Below, piece by piece: positions 317 through 10,930 of a stretch of DNA of 10,930 nt (positions are counted from its first letter, which is position 1; each line of letters starts with the position of its first letter). The notes below the pieces were generated by a model. The model was not told the DNA's origin. It saw nothing but the letters and a program-made list of their open reading frames with translations, and searched no databases. Source of the stretch: a virus (taxonomy: Duplodnaviria; Heunggongvirae; Uroviricota; Caudoviricetes); IMG/VR virus record IMGVR_UViG_2684622580_000009. One strand, 5' to 3'. The translations under genes were made by a program, and so were the position numbers.

Positions 317-907
317 ATGTCTCGAATTTTTGCTTACTGTCGGATATCAACGCTGGATCAGACCATCGAAAATCAACGCCGGGAAATCGAAAGTGCAGGT
401 TTTAAAATCAAACCTCAGCAAATAATCGAAGAACACATTAGCGGCTCAGCAGCAACCAGTGAGCGTCCTGGTTTTAACCGGTTGCTTGCTCGCCTGAAAT
501 GTGGTGATCAATTGATTGTGACAAAACTGGATCGCCTTGGTTGTAATGCAATGGATATCAGGAAAACAGTGGAACAACTGACCGAAACAGGTATCAGAGT
601 GCATTGCTTAGCATTGGGGGGCATTGACCTGACCAGTCCAACAGGAAAAATGATGATGCACGTAATTTCAGCAGTCGCTGAATTTGAACGAGACCTTTTA
701 CTTGAACGCACTCATTCCGGGATAGTAAGAGCCCGCGGCGCAGGGAAACGTTTTGGTCGACCACCTGTGTTAAATGAAGAACAGAAACAGGTGGTATTCG
801 AACGAATTAAGTCAGGTGTAAGTATAAGTGCCATTGCCCGGGAATTCAAAACCTCGCGGCAAACCATTTTAAGAGCCAAAGCAAAACTTCAGACACCTGA
901 CATATAA
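317..907 (+). CDS. pin: Serine recombinase (resolvase/invertase family), PinQ/PinR-like, 196 aa
   Basis: N-terminal catalytic motif YCRISTLDQ with active-site Ser, C-terminal HTH ([20 protein letters not shown]); length and sequence match my recollection of the 196-aa PinQ/PinR proteins of E. coli lambdoid prophages. GAG-rich sequence lies shortly upstream of the ATG at 317. Confidence 0.85.
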
Positions 908-1004: not shown

Positions 1005-1580
1005 CTACGGCAGTGCTGGCCATTCAATATCCTGTGCAGTTGACGTATCAACACGGTTCAGCAACACCCGATACTTTTTCCAGGCTTCCAGCAATGAGGT
1101 TTCTTCCTCCGTTGCGATTTCCAGATCTACAGCATCCTGAAGTGGCGCAATATGCTCACTGGCTACCTGCATCAGGCTGTTTTTTGTTTCTTCCGCCTCT
1201 CGGATCCGGAACAGTTTTTCTGCTTCTGCATCTTTCACCCAGGCTGTGCCGTTCCACTTCTGAAACTCCCCTTCCGGCGATAACCAGGTAACATTTTCCG
1301 GTAACGGACCGAGTTCAGAAATAAATAACGCGTCCCCTGACGCTACGTCATAAACCGTTTTACCCCGATGGTCTTCAACGAGATGCCACGATGCCTTATC
1401 ACTGTTGAAAACAGCCACAAAGCCAGCAGGAATATCTGGTGGTGCAATATCGGTACTGTTTGCTGGCAGACCTGTATGAGGCGGAATATATGCGTCACCT
1501 TCACCAATAAATTCATTAGTTCCGGCCAGCAGATTATAAATTTTTATGGTCCGTGGTTGTTCACTCATTCTGAATGCCAT
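1005..1580 (-). CDS. tfa: Tail fibre assembly protein (lambda Tfa-like), 191 aa
   Basis: Near-identical over its length to recalled lambda Tfa ([54 protein letters not shown]...); sits immediately downstream of the stf-derived ORF with a start/stop overlap at 1580. Confidence 0.9.
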
Positions 1581-2626
1581 TATGCAAGCCTCACAATATA
1601 GTTAAATGCGATGTTTTTGACGGTGTTTTCCGCGTTACCAGCAGCGTTAACGGTGATGGTGTGTCCATGTGAACCAATCGCAACGGAGTGCGTGTGTGCA
1701 CCAATACCGACAGTATGTGCGTGTGCACCTGCAGATGCTGCTGTGCCGGACAGTGAGTGGCTATGGTTACCATCTGTACTGGTATTAGCTAACGCCCCCG
1801 TAGACATACCTACTGAGCCTTGTACACCCCAGGTATTTTGACCTGAGCTTGTATAACCATATTGATAAGTATCTTTAAAAACACTGGGGTTAAATCGACG
1901 GCCATCTCTATGGCTGTGATTACCAGCTGCATTCGTGCTGCCACTTAAACTATGGGTATGCGCACCAGTGTTATTCGTGGATTTAGTGCCGTAATCAAAC
2001 GACGATGTGGTTTTCGTCCCCAAATCCGTACTGGATGCGCTGGCGCTGTGGGTATGCGATTTAATGCCGTCCTGTTCCTGAGACAATACGGCCCGACCAC
2101 TGGCAGGTTTGCCCTTAATCGTCCAGCCACGCATATCAGGGATCACGCCTGACGGATAAGCGGCTGCAAGTTTCGGGTATGCAGATTTGTCAAAAGTCTG
2201 CCCCTGCATCAGGGCATAGCCAGACGGAACGGTATCTGATGGCCACGGGATTGGTGCGCCAGGCGGATAAAACTGCTCTGATGGCGTATAGAGTGAATAA
2301 ACTGTACCGTCCGTTAACCCTTCCGGCTTATTAGCAGAATATGCTGGTGACGTATGAATCGTCACGTTGGCATTACTGGTATAACCGACACGGGCAGACT
2401 TCACCACATTCACCTCGCGGATGTAGTCGCTGCCCATCGCATTCATGATGGCCCGCTGAAAGGGCAGTGTTTCCCAGCGCCCTTCCTGGTATGCGGATTC
2501 TTTCGGGAGATAGTAATTAGCATCCGCCCATTCAACGGCGGTCTGTGGCTCCGGCCTGAACAGTGAGCGAAGCCCGGCGCGGACAAAATGCCGTAGCCTG
2601 TTAACCTGACTGTTCGATATATTCAC
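1580..2626 (-). CDS. Chimeric ORF: terminase large subunit A N-terminus (about 83 codons) fused in frame to the C-terminal region of side tail fibre Stf (about 265 codons)
   Basis: Residues 1-83 ([83 protein letters not shown]) match lambda gpA N-terminus; the remainder ([11 protein letters not shown]...GAHTHS...[29 protein letters not shown]) matches the lambda Stf C-terminus with its His-rich GxHxH repeats. Start overlaps the Nu1 3' end as in lambda. Junction near 2376-2379. Confidence 0.85.
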
Positions 2627-4088: not shown

Positions 4089-4382
4089 ATGAAAAAAATG
4101 TTGTTTTCTGCCGCTCTGGCAATGCTTATTACAGGATGTGCTCAACAGACGTTTACTGTTGGAAACAAACCGACAGCAGTAACACCAAAGGAAACCATCA
4201 CCCATCACTTCTTCGTTTCGGGAATTGGACAGGAGAAAACTGTTGATGCAGCCAAAATTTGTGGCGGCGCAGAAAATGTTGTTAAAACAGAAACCCAGCA
4301 AACATTCGTAAATGGATTGCTCGGTTTTATTACTTTAGGCATTTATACTCCGCTGGAAGCGCGTGTGTATTGCTCACAATAA
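4089..4382 (+). CDS. bor: Bor lipoprotein (serum-resistance, lysogenic-conversion cargo), 97 aa
   Basis: MKKMLFSAALAMLITGCAQQ signal peptide with lipobox LITGC; matches recalled lambda Bor. RBS AGGATAA upstream of the ATG at 4089. The ORF-track start at 4041 is probably an upstream in-frame extension. Confidence 0.9.
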   Translation: MKKMLFSAALAMLITGCAQQTFTVGNKPTAVTPKETITHHFFVSGIGQEKTVDAAKICGGAENVVKTETQQTFVNGLLGFITLGIYTPLEARVYCSQ

Positions 4383-4413: not shown

Positions 4414-4944
4414 CTATCTGCACTGCTCATTAATATACTTCTGGGTTCCTTCCAGTTGTTTTTGCATAGTGATCAGCCTCTCTCTGAGGGTGAAATAATC
4501 CCGTTCAGCGGTGTCTGCCAGTCGGGGGGAGGCTGCATTATCCACGCCGGAGGCGGTGGTGGCTTCACGCACTGACTGACAGACTGCTTTGATGTGCAAC
4601 CGACGACGACCAGCGGCAACATCATCACGCAGAGCATCATTTTCAGCTTTCGCATCAGCTAACTCCTTCGTGTATTTTGCATCGAGCGCAGCAACATCAC
4701 GCTGACGCATCTGCATGTCAGTAATTGCCGCGTTCGCCAGCTTCAGTTCTCTGGCATTTTTGTCGCGCTGGGCTTTGTAGGTAATGGCGTTATCACGGTA
4801 ATGATTAACAGCCCATGACAGGCCGACGATGATGCAGATAACCAGAGCGGAGATAATCGCGGTTATGCCCGTGACATACAGTCCATACACCAACAATATC
4901 TTTATATGGTATGTAGCTGACACCTTCCAGACCATCGTCACCAC
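4414..4944 (-). CDS. Rz: Rz-like i-spanin, 5' end replaced: lambda Rz homology runs from 4414 to about 4866; the ATG at 4944 is non-native
   Basis: From [14 protein letters not shown]... to ...KYINEQCR the product is near-identical to recalled lambda Rz from codon 5 onward. The first roughly 26 codons of this ORF are instead out-of-frame endolysin DNA. Native Rz start and RBS are absent. Confidence 0.8.
4473..4655 (-). CDS. Rz1: Rz1 o-spanin lipoprotein, 60 aa, embedded in the +1 frame of Rz
   Basis: [60 protein letters not shown]: lipobox VVGC and proline-rich segment, near-identical to recalled lambda Rz1. Confidence 0.85.
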
Positions 4945-5029
4945 TCGGACCAGTGATGAGCACAGACGCTATGGCAACAGCCCCACCACCAATAGCAGCT
5001 GCTACAGCCTTGCGTAATGATGGCGACAT
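4805..5029 (-). pseudogene. rrrD: Truncated SAR-endolysin (phage 21 R / RrrD-type lysozyme): only the first 55 codons are retained, followed by 19 out-of-frame codons
   Basis: [55 protein letters not shown] matches the SAR signal-anchor and start of the catalytic region of P21-type endolysins. The frame then runs into Rz DNA and stops at 74 aa, where a complete enzyme is about 165 aa. Start overlaps the holin stop (TAATG). Confidence 0.8.
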
Positions 5030-5816: not shown

Positions 5817-6914
5817 ATGAAAAAATTAACAGTGGCAATTTCTGCTGTAGCTGCATCAGTACTGATGGCGATGTCTGCTCAGGCAGCTGAAATTTATAAT
5901 AAAGACAGTAACAAGCTGGATCTGTACGGGAAAGTTAATGCTAAGCACTACTTCTCCTCTAATGATGCAGATGATGGTGATACTACTTATGCCCGTCTTG
6001 GCTTCAAAGGTGAAACCCAAATCAACGATCAACTGACTGGTTTCGGTCAGTGGGAATATGAATTCAAAGGCAACCGCGCTGAATCTCAAGGTTCCTCCAA
6101 AGACAAAACCCGTCTTGCATTTGCAGGCCTGAAATTCGGTGACTACGGCTCAATCGATTACGGCCGTAACTACGGTGTAGCATACGACATCGGTGCGTGG
6201 ACTGACGTTCTGCCAGAATTCGGTGGCGATACCTGGACCCAAACAGATGTGTTCATGACTGGTCGCACCACTGGTGTTGCAACCTATCGTAACAACGACT
6301 TCTTTGGTCTGGTTGATGGTCTGAACTTTGCTGCTCAGTACCAAGGCAAAAACGATCGTAGCGATTTCGATAACTACACTGAAGGTAACGGTGATGGCTT
6401 CGGTTTCTCTGCTACCTATGAATACGAAGGATTCGGTATCGGTGCAACTTATGCGAAATCTGATCGTACCGACACTCAAGTTAATGCAGGGAAAGTTCTT
6501 CCTGAAGTATTTGCTTCCGGTAAAAATGCAGAAGTTTGGGCCGCAGGTCTGAAATATGACGCTAACAACATTTACCTGGCCACTACCTATTCTGAAACCC
6601 AGAATATGACTGTATTTGCTGATCACTTCGTTGCTAATAAAGCCCAAAACTTCGAAGCTGTTGCACAATATCAGTTCGATTTCGGTCTGCGTCCGTCCGT
6701 TGCTTACCTGCAATCTAAAGGTAAGGATCTTGGAGTATGGGGCGATCAGGACTTAGTCAAATATGTTGATGTAGGTGCAACCTATTACTTCAACAAAAAT
6801 ATGTCTACTTTCGTTGATTACAAAATCAACCTGCTTGACAAAAATGACTTCACTAAAGCACTCGGTGTAAGCACTGATGACATCGTTGCTGTAGGTCTGG
6901 TTTACCAGTTCTAA
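5817..6914 (+). CDS. nmpC: Outer-membrane general porin, NmpC/OmpD/Lc-type, intact, 365 aa precursor
   Basis: Signal peptide [23 protein letters not shown] then [17 protein letters not shown]..., C-terminal VGLVYQF beta-barrel terminal motif with terminal Phe; matches recalled NmpC. The ATG at 5817 is preferred to the upstream ATG at 5757 because it starts the signal peptide and has a purine-rich stretch upstream. It sits opposite to the late genes between Q and S, as in DLP12/PA-2. Confidence 0.9.
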
Positions 6915-6964: not shown

Positions 6965-7103
6965 AAGTGGCTCCCTCAAGCCACTTCCTTTAGAAGCACA
7001 ACCTTGCTTCTAACTATATAAACCTTCTGTTATATATTACCCTTTATTTTTGGGGGCGTCTCAACGCCCCATTTTTAATAATTTTTAGTAAACAATTGGC
7101 ATA
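6965..7103 (-). promoter_or_regulatory. Candidate late promoter (pR'-like) and Q-utilisation region immediately downstream of the Q gene
   Basis: Position only: in lambdoid phages pR' and qut lie directly downstream of Q. The segment is AT-rich and holds three further hairpins (6965-6986, 6992-7010, 7053-7070). No -10/-35 pair could be assigned confidently by eye. Confidence 0.3.
7053..7086 (+). terminator. Rho-independent terminator on the plus strand downstream of the porin gene
   Basis: GGGGCGT-ctca-ACGCCCC stem-loop (7053-7070) followed by ATTTTTAATAATTTTT. Confidence 0.6.
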
Positions 7104-7487
7104 TTAATTAGAGTTATTAACAACGATATCCATCTCTAACCGGATATCTAATGCCATTAACATCCCTTCAATTATGCCCTCAGCCTTCTGTAACCTTTTC
7201 CCGATATAACCATCAGAGCAGCAATGCTTACCTGCCAGTGACATGAATGTCATACCGACTACATAATAATCTACTAATAAATCGTGCAAATCGCTGTTGT
7301 TCTTTTTCAGACGGGCCATGCACCCGCAAATGATCATCGCGTCATCGTCACAACATTGCGGGCGAGATTTTACTTTTGAAGGAATTAATCCCTTAAAACC
7401 GGCGGCAATGGACGACCAGGTCACATCTTCATGATTATTAGCCGCCCACGCTCCCCAACGTTCAAGAACCATCTGAATATCACGCAT
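7104..7487 (-). CDS. quuD: Late-gene antiterminator Q (phage 82 / QuuD-type), 127 aa
   Basis: [60 protein letters not shown]... matches recalled QuuD/Q82, including the Cys-rich zinc-binding region. The ORF-track start at 7502 adds 5 upstream codons; the ATG at 7487 is preferred. Confidence 0.88.
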
Positions 7488-7654
7488 TAACTTTCTCCAC
7501 AAAATCAGGCCAGCACACCAATCGCCAGTGCGCGATCGATAAAACGAAATATCAGCTCCAGCTGGGAGCCATACTTCTCTTCAAATGCCACGGTACCCGT
7601 TATTCTAAAGATCTTGCAGATGAAGGCACCCGCTGCTTTATCGATGCCGATAAT

Positions 7655-8218
7655 ATGCGTGCCGTCAGTGTGCTTAACCTGGGTACTATTGATGAGCCAG
7701 GTCACGCAGATAACACTGCCACTCTCAAACTGAAAAAGACAGCACCGTTCTCTGCTCTGTTGTCTGTTAACGGCGAGCGTAACTCCCAGAAGTCACTGGC
7801 AGAATGGATCGAAGACTGGGCCGACTACCTTGTGGGCTTTGATGCTAATGGTGACGCCATTCAGGCAACAAAAGCGGCTGCGGCAGTCCGTAAAATCACG
7901 ATTGAAGCAAACCAGACCGCTGATTTTGAAGATAATGACTTCAGCGGCAAACGCTCCCTGATGGAGTCTGTCGAAGCGAAGACCAAAGACATTATGCCAG
8001 TGGCATTTGAATTTAAATGCGTTCCGTTTGAAGGTCTGAAAGAACGTCCGTTTAAATTACGCCTCAGCATTATCACTGGCGATCGTCCTGTACTGGTTCT
8101 GCGCATTATTCAGCTGGAAGCGGTGCAGGAAGAAATGGCTAACGAATTTCGTGATCTGCTTGTTGAGAAATTCAAAGACAGCAAAGTAGAAACCTTTATT
8201 GGTACTTTCACCGCCTGA
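7655..8218 (+). CDS. yfdQ: YfdQ-like (DUF2303) protein; possibly a 5'-truncated remnant
   Basis: Assigned mainly by synteny, directly upstream of an unmistakable yfdR-yfdS-yfdT run. The reading frame stays open about 58 codons upstream of the ATG at 7655 with no in-frame start, extending to within a few bp of the quuD start, which suggests a truncated longer gene. Confidence 0.5.
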
Positions 8219-8345
8219 TTTCATTACTGCAAATGCCCCTGCGGGGGCATTTATGGAAACGTAATTAACTCAATAATCGCCGGATGGTGAGGGCTTCCTT
8301 TTACCAGAATTCAGCGCGGTGCAGTGCATATACGTGGAGAACAAA

Positions 8346-8882
8346 ATGTCATTTATTAAAACTTTTTCCGGGAAGCATTTTTATTATGACAAGATAAATA
8401 AAGACGACATCGATATTAACGATATCGCGGTTTCCCTTTCAAATATCTGTCGCTTTGCCGGTCATCTTTCGCACTTCTACAGCGTCGCCCAACATGCGGT
8501 TCTTTGCAGCCAGCTGGTGCCGCAGGAATTTGCTTTTGAAGCGTTAATGCATGATGCAACAGAAGCGTATTGCCAGGACATTCCCGCACCACTGAAACGC
8601 CTTCTTCCTGACTATAAACGGATGGAAGAAAAAATAGACGCCGTAATCCGTGAGAAATACGGGTTACCCCCAGTTATGAGTACACCCGTGAAATATGCCG
8701 ATCTCATCATGCTGGCAACCGAACGCCGCGATCTCGGGCTTGATGATGGCTCTTTCTGGCCTGTACTGGAAGGCATCCCGGCAACAGAGATGTTCAACGT
8801 GATTCCACTGGCACCGGGTCATGCCTACGGGATGTTTATGGAACGTTTTAACGATTTATCGGAGTTACGCAAATGCGCATGA
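8346..8882 (+). CDS. yfdR: HD-domain 5'-deoxynucleotidase YfdR-like, 178 aa
   Basis: MSFIKTFSGKHFYYDKINKDD...CRFAGHLSHFYSVAQHAVLCS...LMHDATEAYCQDIP carries the HD-superfamily H...HD metal-binding motifs and matches recalled E. coli YfdR. RBS GGAGA 5 nt upstream of the ATG at 8346. Confidence 0.85.
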   Translation: MSFIKTFSGKHFYYDKINKDDIDINDIAVSLSNICRFAGHLSHFYSVAQHAVLCSQLVPQEFAFEALMHDATEAYCQDIPAPLKRLLPDYKRMEEKIDAVIREKYGLPPVMSTPVKYADLIMLATERRDLGLDDGSFWPVLEGIPATEMFNVIPLAPGHAYGMFMERFNDLSELRKCA

Positions 8883-9235
8883 ATGTTTTCGAAATGGAAG
8901 GGTTTCTTCGCGGGAAATGTGTACCGCGAGATCTGAAAGTGAACGAAACAAATGCTGAGTACCTGGTACGTAAATTCGACGCGCTTGAAGCTAAATGTGC
9001 GGCACTGGAAAACAAAATAATACCAGTGTCAGCTGAACTGCCACCAGCAAATGAAAGTGTTCTGTTATTTGATGCTAATGGAGAAGGCTGGCTGATTGGC
9101 TGGCGTTCTCTCTGGTACACCTGGGGACAAAAAGAAACCGGAGAATGGCAGTGGACATTTCAGGTCGGGGACCTTGAAAACGTCAATATCACTCACTGGG
9201 CAGTAATGCCAAAAGCACCGGAGGCTGGAGCATAA
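8873..9235 (+). CDS. yfdS: YfdS-like prophage protein of unknown function, 120 aa
   Basis: Matches recalled YfdS of CPS-53/KplE1. Start overlaps the yfdR stop (alternative ATG at 8879 forms an ATGA overlap), indicating translational coupling. Confidence 0.7.
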   Translation: MRMNVFEMEGFLRGKCVPRDLKVNETNAEYLVRKFDALEAKCAALENKIIPVSAELPPANESVLLFDANGEGWLIGWRSLWYTWGQKETGEWQWTFQVGDLENVNITHWAVMPKAPEAGA

Positions 9236-9540
9236 TGACCACATTTACCAATAAAGAACTGATTAAAGAAATCAAAGAACGAATCAGCAGCCTAGAGGTT
9301 CGAGACGATATTGAGCGCCGTGCTTATGAAATCGCACTCGTATCTCTGGAAGTAGAGCCAGTTGAACGCGAAGCCTATGAATTATTCATGGAAAAGCGTT
9401 TCGGTGACTTAGTAGATCGTCGGAGAGCAAAAAACGGCGATAACGAATACATGGCATGGGATATGACTCTCGGTTGGATCGTCTGGCAGCAACGAGCTGG
9501 TATCCATTTTTCAACAATGACACAGCAAGAGGTGAAATAA
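9235..9540 (+). CDS. yfdT: YfdT-like prophage protein of unknown function, 101 aa
   Basis: Matches recalled YfdT; TAATG stop/start overlaps at both ends (with yfdS at 9235 and with the next gene at 9540). Confidence 0.7.
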   Translation: MTTFTNKELIKEIKERISSLEVRDDIERRAYEIALVSLEVEPVEREAYELFMEKRFGDLVDRRRAKNGDNEYMAWDMTLGWIVWQQRAGIHFSTMTQQEVK

Positions 9541-9911
9541 TGGAGCCATACAGCCTCACACTCGATGAGGCCTGTCAGTTTCTTAAGATATCCAGACCAA
9601 CCGCCACCAACTGGATACGAACAGGCCGCCTACAGGCAACACGTAAAGATCCAACCAAGCCAAAATCTCCTTACCTCACAACACGGCAAGCTTGCATTGC
9701 GGCGCTTCAGTCTCCGCTGCATACTGTCCAGGTGAGCGCGGGTGATGGCATAACAGAGGAAAGAAAATGTCACTCTTCCGCAGAAATGAAATATGGTATG
9801 CCTCGTATTCGCTCCCGGGCGGGAAACGAATTAAGGAATCTCTTGGCACAAAGGACAAGCGGCAAGCTCAGGAGTTGCACGACAAGCGAAAAGCAGAACT
9901 CTGGCGAGTAG
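9540..9911 (+). CDS. Excisionase / AlpA-like HTH DNA-binding protein (putative Xis); 3' end uncertain, the open frame runs 145 nt into int
   Basis: N-terminal about 60 aa ([30 protein letters not shown]) has the excisionase/MerR-type HTH signature. RBS GAGGTG upstream of the ATG at 9540. Sits immediately 5' of the integrase. The C-terminal about 45 codons overlap int in another frame and are low-complexity, so the true stop may have been lost. Confidence 0.55.
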
Positions 9912-10930
9912 AAAAGCTAGGGGATTTACCTGATGTCACTTTTGAAGAGGCCTGCCTAAGATGGCTTGAGGAAAAAGCTGATAAAAAATCTCTCGATTCA
10001 GATAAAAGCCGGATTGAGTTCTGGCTTGAACATTTTGAGGGTATAAGGCTTAAAGATATCTCGGAGGCAAAGATTTACTCTGCTGTAAGCAGAATGCATA
10101 ACAGAAAGACGAAAGAAATATGGAAACAGAAAGTTCAGGCCGCCATCAGGAAAGGTAAAGAACCGCCTGTTTATGAACCAAAGCCAGTATCAACTCAGAC
10201 AAAGGCAAAGCATCTTGCCATGATAAAGGCCATTCTCCGTGCTGCAGAACGCGACTGGAAGTGGCTGGAAAAAGCGCCTGTCATCAAGATACCAGCGGTC
10301 AGAAACAAGCGAGTCAGATGGCTGGAAAAGGAGGAAGCAAAACGCCTTATTGATGAGTGCCCCGAACCACTGAAATCTGTCGTCAAGTTTGCGCTGGCAA
10401 CTGGTCTGAGAAAGTCGAACATCATAAATCTGGAATGGCAACAAATCGACATGCAGCGACGAGTTGCCTGGGTGAATCCAGAAGAGAGCAAATCAAACCG
10501 CGCCATTGGTGTGGCGCTGAACGATACCGCCTGTAAAGTGTTGCGTGATCAAATAGGCAAGCATCACAAATGGGTGTTTGTACATACCAAGGCGGCTAAG
10601 CGAGCAGATGGAACATCAACGCCTGCGGTCAGGAAGATGCGCATCGACAGCAAGACATCATGGCTATCAGCTTGTCGTCGTGCAGGAATTGAAGATTTCC
10701 GTTTCCATGACCTCAGACACACCTGGGCAAGCTGGCTGATCCAGTCAGGCGTCCCATTATCTGTGCTTCAGGAAATGGGCGGATGGGAGTCCATAGAAAT
10801 GGTTCGTAGGTATGCTCACCTTGCGCCTAATCATTTGACAGAGCATGCAAGGAAAATAGACGACATTTTTGGTGATAATGTCCCAAATATGTCCCACTGT
10901 GGAATTATGGAGGATATAAAGAAGGCGTAA
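9767..10930 (+). CDS. intD: Tyrosine site-specific integrase (lambda Int family, IntD-like), 387 aa
   Basis: Closely resembles recalled DLP12 IntD throughout. The C-terminal catalytic region carries R...HDLRHTWAS...[15 protein letters not shown] with the Tyr nucleophile in RRYAH. RBS GAGGAAAG upstream. Stop codon is the last triplet of the window. Confidence 0.93.

Follow-up and report, generated by a model that had tools for sequence, protein, structure and literature searches.

Probable remnant of a deleted early-left operon with yfdR, yfdS, yfdT, xis and intD in a decayed Escherichia coli prophage at argU

The yfd cluster in K-12 and in related phages

The genes yfdQ, yfdR, yfdS and yfdT of Escherichia coli K-12 were reported to inhibit initiation at oriC in multicopy, and this inhibition needs yfdQ and yfdR together with yfdS or yfdT (Noguchi and Katayama, 2016; PMC4776307). 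In vivo, yfdQ was required even on pBR322, and the plasmid pSSPH, which carries an HpaI-BamHI deletion, does not suppress (PMC4776307). Purified YfdR alone binds domain I of DnaA in vitro; the binding is direct and dependent on Phe46, and inhibition of initiation was also seen in vitro (PMC4776307). Deletion of the chromosomal cluster of K-12 gave no phenotype, and the homologues in SfV were already pointed out by the same authors, whose paper also cites a sensitivity of yfdQ and yfdS deletions to H2O2 and MMS (PMC4776307). The earlier note on this DNA described this work, and the paper reads as it was described there.

In K-12, the cluster is found in CPS-53 (KplE1) in the order yfdP-yfdQ-yfdR-yfdS-yfdT-ypdJ-torI, where it leads into the excisionase gene torI. 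The integrase gene intS does not adjoin the cluster and was absent from the 10.5 kb examined; it lies at the opposite end of the CPS-53 prophage. The KplE1 intS paper was found to contain no mention of the yfd genes. The DNA studied here (the window; 10,930 nucleotides in full) was 97.9% identical to CPS-53 at positions 7594-9602, with 97-100% identity between the proteins; in contrast to the window, CPS-53 has an intact yfdQ and yfdP. Only the first 63 nt of xis are left in CPS-53, inside ypdJ and with the ATG changed to ATA, followed by the unrelated RDF gene torI. The DLP12 prophage of K-12 shares the argU site and intD with the window and was 99.4% identical to positions 9672-10930 (intD-xisD). 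In DLP12, unlike in the window, xis is reduced to its 3' part (xisD), and remnants of exoD, peaD and renD come next, without yfd genes. A P22-type xis is whole in the window, and K-12 has two halves of it, ypdJ and xisD. Because CPS-53 keeps a 5' piece of this xis, the K-12 arrangement is derived, and the value of the comparison is corrective: the so-called CPS-53 context is the rearranged version.

The early-left regions of SfV (orf32-orf31-orf30-orf29-orf28-xis-int) and PhiR49_1 have the gene order and orientation of the window, with the same overlaps of 10, 1 and 1 nt and a P22-type xis overlapping int. They differ from the window by a full yfdQ of 274 codons, preceded by yfdP and a cI/cro immunity region, and the integrase of SfV is not IntD and was just 73% identical. 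The viability of PhiR49_1 rests on the propagation hosts listed in its GenBank record; no paper describing it was found in the literature search. In cdtI, the yfd cluster leads into a different excisionase gene, orf34.

The order yfdP-yfdQ-yfdR-yfdS-yfdT-xis-int was found at 99.8% nucleotide identity in PhiR49_1 and at 95% in SfV and SfIV, and the yfdT-xis-int junction (at least 80% coverage) was present in 1174 of 5426 complete E. coli genomes (22%). The earlier note read the locus as a mosaic that would tie host-replication control to excision; as a novel mosaic, a replication-control module from CPS-53 would have moved beside IntD-type excision and integration genes and acquired a new functional coupling. 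Judged by K-12 alone, the left part does resemble CPS-53 and the right part DLP12. However, the contiguous order in a deposited phage genome and in SfV and SfIV, its frequency among complete E. coli genomes, the xis 5' end retained by CPS-53, and the truncated yfdQ and lost promoters of the window copy make such a mosaic extremely improbable; the cluster followed by xis-int is the normal order in PhiR49_1, SfV, SfIV and Kati. In the note, the identities of the genes and the published inhibition were supported; the mosaic and a live operon were not.

The window and its deletion junction

The features of the right part of the window are listed in Table 1. By blastn, window 7594-10930 was 99.82% identical to PhiR49_1 9000-12336 and window 7018-7599 was 97.3% identical to PhiR49_1 1-580, and the approximately 8.4 kb between both matches is missing from the window. 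The junction was placed from this blastn comparison, a comparison of the flanks and the gene table of PhiR49_1. The lost DNA comprised the remainder of the DUF968/YdfU gene together with a hypothetical gene, rusA, dam, yfdN, O, ymfM/L, cro, cI, three small ORFs, yfdP and codons 1-67 of yfdQ. An illegitimate deletion of about 8.4 kb with 2-nt microhomology fused the 3' end of the DUF968 gene to codon 68 of yfdQ. The DUF968 piece, which RefSeq annotates at the identical locus as a pseudogene "missing N-terminus", is collinear with PhiR49_1 1-580.

Table 1. Features around the deletion junction and in the yfd-xis-int region (window positions).
Feature	Positions	Strand	Description
quuD	7104..7487	-	late antiterminator Q gene; Pfam Phage_antitermQ E=1e-53; RefSeq quuD at identical locus
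DUF968/YdfU-family remnant	7505..7600	-	C-terminal remnant, left of deletion; Pfam DUF968 profile 146-171/171 only
deletion junction	7590..7599		…GCCACGGTA joined to CCCGTT…; fuses PhiR49_1-like ~577 to ~9000
yfdQ remnant (DUF2303)	7595..8218	+	codons 68-274 of 274; no start codon or promoter; RefSeq pseudogene
yfdQ-yfdR spacer	8219..8345	+	127 nt; hairpin AAATGCCCC-TGCG-GGGGCATTT at 8231-8252; second, weaker hairpin
yfdR	8346..8882	+	HD-domain protein, 178 aa, intact; PHROG 318 E=5e-110
yfdS	8873..9235	+	DUF551, 120 aa, intact; overlaps yfdR by 10 nt (ATGCGCATGA)
yfdT	9235..9540	+	101 aa, intact; PHROG 660 E=4e-31; TAATG overlap with yfdS
xis	9540..9911	+	P22-type excisionase, full-length gene of 123 codons; yfdT stop and xis start share TAATG
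intD	9767..10930	+	tyrosine integrase, 387 aa, intact; Pfam Phage_integrase PF00589 E=5.5e-47

The exact deletion junction was found in 20 of 5426 complete E. coli genomes, and the best 15 listed genomes were at least 99.9% identical over window 7400-10930, 14 of them exactly. KSC9 (NZ_CP018323) is among the carriers of this allele. The prophage integration site is argU, occupied by DLP12 in K-12, and the late region (nohD, ylcI, bor, rzpD, essD, nmpC and quuD) is collinear with DLP12 at 93-99% identity. The quuD product was 97% identical to PhiR49_1 Q, and quuD lies at the end of the prophage's second surviving arm. The Rfam scan of the whole window gave IS009 at 1039-1237 as the sole match and none in the yfd-xis-int region. 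Window 7595-10930 is read as the promoter-distal end of the operon for early-left (repressor-side) genes in a lambdoid prophage similar to PhiR49_1 and SfV. The best explanation, which we hold with high confidence, is a deleted early-left operon remnant in a decayed E. coli prophage at argU, with the cluster most likely inert.

The yfdQ ORF at 7655-8218, with which the module of the earlier note begins, runs from an internal ATG within the 5'-truncated remnant and is not a gene. The remnant was identical to residues 68-274 of K-12 YfdQ at 205 of 207 positions and to PhiR49_1 at all 207; it matched Pfam PF10065 (DUF2303; E=2e-61) at profile positions 84-269 only and PHROG 210 at positions 67-274. 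The window copy, which does not span the YfdQ/DUF2303 profile of about 270 residues, is a fragment of a true member. An AlphaFold2 single-sequence model of the remnant had a pLDDT of 34, too low for use. The PDB sequence search found a YfdQ homologue in 9o7m, an entry with 36 YfdQ chains for which no publication was found in the literature search.

The assignments to YfdQ, YfdR, YfdS and YfdT in the earlier note hold. YfdR was identical to the K-12 protein at 177 of 178 residues (the sole change being V23D) and to that of PhiR49_1 at 178 of 178. Its H...HD...D motif is kept, and H50, H69-D70 and D118 align with Atu1052 (PDB 2gz4), the only match in the PDB sequence search; near-identity to K-12 and the metal-binding residues identify it as a YfdR orthologue. 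It was rejected as an orthologue of YfbR on scores below the cut-offs, 19.9 bits against 122 for the YfbR equivalog (NCBIfam NF003009) and 24.3 against 25.9 for the Pfam YfbR-like family, and is a relative within the HD superfamily instead. YfdR has nucleotide affinities far below those of YfbR (PMC4776307). YfdS was identical to K-12 at 120 of 120 residues and is a member of DUF551 (Pfam PF04448; 22.2 bits against a cut-off of 22.0), a family also found in Ea22 variants. YfdT was identical at 98 of 101. No solved relatives of YfdS, YfdT, YfdP or Xis were found in PDB sequence searches, no PADLOC defence model matched YfdQ, YfdR, YfdS or YfdT, and NCBIfam gave no specific family for YfdQ, YfdS or YfdT.

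The excisionase and integrase that the earlier note had seen downstream were found to be a P22-type Xis and IntD. Xis matched the PHROG 2907 excisionase profile (E=1e-45) at positions 1-116 of 117 and Pfam HTH_17 (E=1e-8), and its identity to P22 Xis was 78% along the full 116 residues, to SfV Xis 80% and to the PhiR49_1 ORF 100%; the full-length alignment and the N-terminal HTH place it with the P22-type Xis proteins. RefSeq contains merely a 66-nt xis pseudogene at the identical locus and under-annotates the full-length gene of the window. The integrase was 100% identical to PhiR49_1 Int and 73% identical in amino acids to P22 Int and SfV Int. A tRNA-Arg gene (argU) is present 15 nt past the int stop at the identical locus, just outside the window, and the integrase, being full length and adjoining this tRNA gene, is of the IntD/P22 Int type.

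Gene overlaps and expression of the remnant

The earlier note described four genes joined by stop/start overlaps. Three overlaps were present: ATGA at 8879-8882 between yfdR and yfdS (the yfdR stop TGA occupying 8880-8882), TAATG at 9233-9237 with the yfdS stop and the yfdT start, and TAATG at 9538-9542 with the yfdT stop and the xis start (9540), the last two being overlaps of 1 nt. Annotation starts yfdS at 8873, an in-frame ATG; from the ATG at 8879 the overlap would be 4 nt. The link between yfdQ and yfdR did not hold, and because the 127-nt gap separates them, the overlap-linked set consists of three genes and xis only. The xis and int genes overlap by 145 nt. Shine-Dalgarno sequences of the GGAG/GAGG type were found 5-9 nt before each start (for yfdS, GGAG at 8 nt), and stop/start overlaps with an internal Shine-Dalgarno sequence were present at yfdR/S, yfdS/T and yfdT/xis and absent at yfdQ/R. 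The three overlaps are base-for-base alike in K-12, SfV, PhiR49_1 and cdtI. Same-strand neighbours overlapped in 14 of 22 pairs in the examined SfV stretch and in 8 of 17 in PhiR49_1, and the frequency of overlaps in the yfd genes is not above expectation for phage operons. Such tight overlaps with internal Shine-Dalgarno sequences are the usual compact packing of phage genes and may bring some translational coupling.

The spacer hairpin is a GC-rich inverted repeat of 9 bp, and the fold of the spacer had a z of -2.2. The spacer differed from K-12 at 5 of 127 nt and has the same length in SfV and PhiR49_1. Among direct and inverted repeats at 7400-10930, this hairpin alone stood out, the others being at chance level. 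As an intrinsic terminator the hairpin was dropped, as no T-run follows it and the scan made no such call. The promoter/terminator scan found no promoter-like site in the spacer.

The single operon feeding xis-int that the earlier note proposed fits the parent phage, whereas the element is without the upstream early-left DNA, cI, cro and yfdP. The consensus scan, which could miss weak or non-sigma-70 promoters, found no sigma-70-like site on the + strand at 7268-10100, and the count of promoter-like matches was not above the shuffled expectation. With cI, cro, the genes for replication, yfdP and the yfdQ 5' end deleted, every native early promoter is gone and the remnant operon is without its own promoter. 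It is not a functional lambdoid early-left operon, the operator/promoter next to the repressor gene being gone. A yfdQ pseudogene is left over, followed by intact and probably unexpressed yfdR, yfdS, yfdT, xis and intD. As a counterpoint to a silent remnant, antisense transcription across quuD could read through into these genes.

The five ORFs are intact with good Shine-Dalgarno sites, the spacer is conserved and modestly structured, and purified YfdR binds DnaA unaided in vitro (PMC4776307), which favours expression of yfdR-yfdS-yfdT-xis-intD from a promoter that escaped recognition, within the 127-nt spacer or made at the junction. Since YfdR alone binds DnaA, and the cryptic prophage could still be excised through xis and int, replication control and excision would then stay linked, if less strongly. 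We consider this unlikely: the + strand gave no promoter-like site in the spacer or close to it, inhibition in vivo also needs yfdQ even on pBR322, and the chromosomal deletion in K-12 is without phenotype. The intact yfdR, yfdS, yfdT, xis and int could reflect continuing use, but are equally explained by a recent deletion, given the near-complete identity among the best 15 listed genomes.

Function of the cluster and comparison with lambda and P22

Given its 99.4% identity to the tested K-12 protein, the window YfdR may be a DnaA-binding initiation inhibitor, with its required partner YfdQ truncated in the window. The HpaI site was mapped in the present analysis, and pSSPH was found to contain yfdQ codons 126-274 together with yfdRST. 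Since yfdQ is required and this plasmid with a 5'-truncated yfdQ and yfdRST is inactive, the window cluster is most likely inert for the inhibition of initiation at oriC. The inactivity of pSSPH could also come from polar loss of the promoter instead of loss of YfdQ, the two being unseparated in PMC4776307.

It is possible, though doubtful, that the natural role of the cluster is not DnaA inhibition and that the overexpression result is an artefact, as conceded by its authors; the window copy is truncated regardless. The HD phosphohydrolase may then manipulate nucleotide pools, or a large oligomer of YfdQ may perform a DNA transaction; the HD phosphohydrolase superfamily of YfdR, the 36 chains in 9o7m and the cited H2O2/MMS sensitivity of the yfdQ and yfdS deletions are consistent with such roles. 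The direct, Phe46-dependent binding of YfdR to DnaA, the inhibition of initiation in vitro and the absence of a PADLOC defence-family match argue against it, and Casjens and colleagues doubt that the cluster hides a function in recombination, since it is found alongside complete Rec modules. Such a recombination function, suggested by the position of the cassette, was on the same grounds not retained as the leading idea.

We give little credence to a further reading, in which yfdQRST is a dedicated host-replication-arrest module fused by a 1-nt stop/start overlap to whatever excisionase its lambdoid or SfV-like carrier phage has, and the residual YfdR-YfdS-YfdT-Xis unit might respond to an unrecognised promoter. 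If true, Xis synthesis would be linked to the cassette by translation, and excision would be coordinated with a block of oriC firing. The excisionases concerned are the P22-type Xis of the window and SfV, the Xis of cdtI and, formerly, that of CPS-53.

For the preferred reading as a deleted operon remnant, the discovery value is small; the gene order, the presence in SfV, the commonness in lambdoid early-left regions and the link to DnaA are published (PMC4776307, PMC12315714). A coupling of replication and excision is aptly tested in the intact phages SfV and PhiR49_1, and not in the deleted remnant. The order in the intact phage is cI, a few small ORFs, yfdP, yfdQ, yfdR, yfdS, yfdT, xis and int; judging from gene order and orientation, the cassette would be co-transcribed with xis upon induction, and it fills the slot of the lambda exo-xis and P22 "ea" genes.

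In the lambda exo-xis and P22 ea regions, accessory genes likewise occupy the early-left (pL) operon directly upstream of xis-int, lying between xis and the recombination genes. The pL promoter drives the lambda region, which, as cited in PMC10834534 from Sergueev et al. (2002), has been linked to inhibited replication of host DNA and to cell-cycle synchronisation. The xis/int overlap is 124 nt in P22 against 145 nt in the window. No sequence relationship was found between yfdQ, yfdR or yfdT and the lambda exo-xis genes, and YfdS and P22 EaE shared a 15-residue match and nothing more. The likeness of the yfd cassette to the lambda exo-xis and P22 ea regions is positional and possibly functional, rather than one of family membership.

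Gene layout and identities

The layout of window 7595-10930 was taken from the ORFs of all six frames together with the raw sequence, and the gene names were checked by Pfam, PHROGs and direct K-12 comparison. An earlier note had described a yfdQ-yfdR-yfdS-yfdT module joined by stop/start overlaps and leading into xis and int. The three motifs named there were found exactly in place, ATGA at 8879-8882 (yfdR stop at 8880-8882), TAATG at 9233-9237 and TAATG at 9538-9542 for the yfdR/yfdS, yfdS/yfdT and yfdT/xis junctions, respectively. yfdS is annotated from an in-frame ATG at 8873 and so overlaps yfdR by 10 nt (ATGCGCATGA). A GGAG/GAGG element was present 5-9 nt 5' of every downstream start (yfdS, yfdT and xis). 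The overlap chain into xis holds at three of the four junctions, but yfdQ is truncated and its end (8218) is separated from the yfdR start (8346) by a 127-nt gap. This gap contained a 9-bp GC-rich hairpin, with no T-run after it. Same-strand neighbouring pairs overlapped in SfV (14 of 22) and PhiR49_1 (8 of 17); the yfd-xis overlaps are typical of ordinary phage gene packing and may give putative translational coupling.

Features of the window and of the compared loci (window positions unless a locus is named)
Feature	Position	Strand	Basis or remark
Pin/Gin-type serine invertase gene	317-907	+	
Tail-fibre assembly gene	1005-1580	-	
IS009	1039-1237	-	Rfam, 226.7 bits, full length
Fusion ORF, 348 codons	1580-2626	-	RefSeq 'phage tail protein'
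Bor-family lipoprotein gene	4089-4382	+	RefSeq Iss (increased serum survival)
rrrD-type lysozyme remnant	4805-5029	-	165-nt N-terminal remnant
nmpC-type porin gene	5817-6914	+	Porin_1, E=1e-156
DUF968 remnant, 96 nt	7505-7600	-	abuts yfdQ remnant
Shared left deletion endpoint	7590-7599; L002 (strain 13TMH22) 12195-12202; L005 (PhiR49_1) ~577-582		
ORF (yfdQ remnant reading)	7655-8218	+	six-frame ORF list
Hairpin in yfdQ-yfdR gap	8231-8252		
yfdR	8346-8882	+	six-frame ORF list, K-12 comparison
yfdS	8873-9235	+	six-frame ORF list, K-12 comparison
yfdT	9235-9540	+	six-frame ORF list, K-12 comparison
xis, 123 codons	9540-9911	+	P22 Xis and PHROG 2907 match
intD, 387 codons	9767-10930	+	nucleotide match to K-12 DLP12
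ypdJ in K-12, holding the 5' half of xis	L003 (CPS-53) 8095-8241		first 63 nt (ATG to ATA) inside ypdJ
xis 3' part in K-12	L004 (DLP12) 2359-2580		xisD

Together these methods confirmed YfdR, YfdS and YfdT, which were identical to K-12 at 177/178 (sole change V23D), 120/120 and 98/101 residues, respectively; the HD motif of YfdR (H50, H69-D70, D118) was intact. For yfdQ the family was correctly named, but the ORF is an internal-ATG reading within a 5'-truncated gene. Its homology to K-12 starts at 7595 and spans residues 68-274 of 274 (205/207 identical), Pfam DUF2303 covers profile positions 84-269 only, and at the identical locus in strain KSC9 it is a RefSeq pseudogene. YfdR carries its 'dNMP 5'-nucleotidase' label as an annotation passed down from YfbR; the protein scores under the YfbR family cut-offs. 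Much lower nucleotide affinities of YfdR are cited by Noguchi and Katayama, 2016 (PMC4776307). PDB entry 9o7m ('YfdQ Protein') contains 36 chains of a 274-residue YfdQ homologue (E=3e-36, about 45% identity); a solved structure, apparently a large oligomer, thus exists for the DUF2303 family, and no paper on this entry was found.

The window xis encodes a full-length P22-type excisionase, 78% identical to P22 Xis across all 116 residues (PHROG 2907, E=1e-45). RefSeq/PGAP annotates only 66 nt of it, as 'HTH pseudogene', an under-call probably due to its 145-nt overlap with intD. The integrase is IntD, with 99.4% nucleotide identity to K-12 DLP12, and the argU tRNA gene lies just beyond the window end.

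Prophage setting and deletion

A decayed prophage that occupies the DLP12 site makes up the window, with the order pin-like invertase, tfa, terminase-N::tail-fibre fusion ORF, nohD, ylcI, bor/iss, rzpD, lysozyme remnant, essD, intact nmpC-like porin and quuD. Window 7018-7599 matches 1-580 of the Escherichia phage PhiR49_1 region (Q and the 3' end of the YdfU/DUF968 gene), and 7594 onward matches 9000 onward, the ~8.4 kb between being absent. The lost part held, besides the remainder of the DUF968/YdfU gene, one hypothetical gene, rusA, a LexA-like ORF, dam, yfdN, O, ymfM, ymfL, cro, cI, three small ORFs, yfdP and yfdQ codons 1-67. The junction reads GCCACGGTA/CCCGTT, with only TA as microhomology, and was found exactly in 20 complete E. 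coli genomes. Strain 13TMH22 carries a less deleted relative, which keeps yfdP and the whole yfdQ. The left endpoints of the two deletions lie within ~3 nt inside the DUF968/YdfU gene, whereas the right endpoints are far apart (phage position ~9000 for the window type, ~7367 for 13TMH22), a pattern that points to nested deletions or to a hot spot at this place.

Other deletions were also observed. The fusion ORF, which is in frame, begins with a lambda gpA-type large terminase N-terminus (Pfam GpA_ATPase, residues 47-87) and continues into repeats of the tail-collar and tail-fibre kind; it is the scar of a deletion that took out the entire head/tail morphogenesis region. The lysozyme remnant, between essD and rzpD, is a further internal deletion of the same prophage. 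The adjoining invertase and tail-fibre assembly genes are the leftover of an invertible tail-fibre host-range switch, and IS009, the sole Rfam match of the window, lies within the latter gene. The porin gene is intact, whereas nmpC of K-12 DLP12 is disrupted by IS5; the porin and Bor/Iss genes are cryptic prophage cargo that may still be expressed.

Expression and replication inhibition

With the ~8.4-kb deletion, the immunity region and the two early promoters were therefore lost. In a sigma-70 consensus scan, 7268-10100 had no + strand site, and the total hits of the scan equalled the shuffled expectation. A functional operon, as proposed earlier, is not supported, and yfd-xis-int in the window is most likely silent; the copy is the remnant of a recent deletion, and decay has not yet reached its downstream ORFs. 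An unrecognised promoter might still give some expression, with YfdR acting on DnaA by itself; this reading is unsupported, and we consider it unlikely.

The replication-inhibition report that the earlier note describes exists, and the note gives its content correctly (PMC4776307). In multicopy, either yfdQRT or yfdQRS inhibits initiation at oriC, the minimal set being yfdQ, yfdR and yfdS or yfdT; YfdR binds DnaA in a Phe46-dependent manner and is a moderate competitor of DiaA and DnaB (PMC4776307). The HpaI-BamHI deletion plasmid pSSPH was inactive (PMC4776307); yfdQ has one HpaI site, conserved at window 7766, and by our mapping of it the plasmid keeps yfdQ codons 126-274 and yfdRST. The window arrangement (5'-truncated yfdQ with yfdRST, single copy, promoterless) comes close to inactive pSSPH. 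Chromosomal deletion of the cluster was without phenotype, and the authors grant that the effect might be an artefact of overexpression (PMC4776307). The true role of the cassette may be other than DnaA inhibition; the 36 YfdQ chains of 9o7m hint at a large assembly.

Comparison with phages and E. coli genomes

In the parent phage, the yfd cassette fills the slot of the lambda exo-xis genes or the P22 ea genes. The lambda exo-xis region is described in PMC10834534 (citing Sergueev 2002) as pL-driven and long tied to host replication inhibition. Gene order suggests a host-replication modulator co-transcribed with xis/int after induction, which, because of this shared slot, would be a generic lambdoid design and not peculiar to this element.

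Megablast of 7595-9911 against phage genomes found ten records with at least 80% query coverage: PhiR49_1, its variant record PhiR49_1_star, PhiR29_1 and PhiR29_2 (99.7% match), Kati (98.7%), and SfIV (two records), the identical-length Shigella phage VIT_AJPSC and SfV (two records) (95.4%). Their annotated order is cI, small ORFs, yfdP, yfdQ, yfdR, yfdS, yfdT, xis, int, with the same overlaps and the same 127-nt spacer length as in the window. PhiR49_1 was 99.82% identical to window 7594-10930, and its Xis and Int proteins were 100% identical. An 801-nt yfdT-xis-int probe was at least 80% covered in 1174/5426 complete E. coli genomes. In agreement with this, SfV homologues of the cluster were already pointed out in PMC4776307. 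The claim of a new mosaic of the yfd module and an IntD-type element is refuted by these phages and genomes, which leaves it next to no probability.

The cluster also occurs in phage cdtI, where YfdT is fused to DUF551 and a stop/start overlap leads to an excisionase from a different family. K-12 CPS-53 has the same cluster followed by torI; it matches 7594-9602 (97.9%), 63 nt into xis (start ATA), and then diverges. K-12 keeps the two halves of a P22-type xis in separate cryptic prophages, whereas the window holds the entire gene. Because CPS-53 (in ypdJ) and DLP12 (xisD) each hold part of a P22-type xis, the K-12 contexts are the rearranged ones, and the junction in the window is ancestral.
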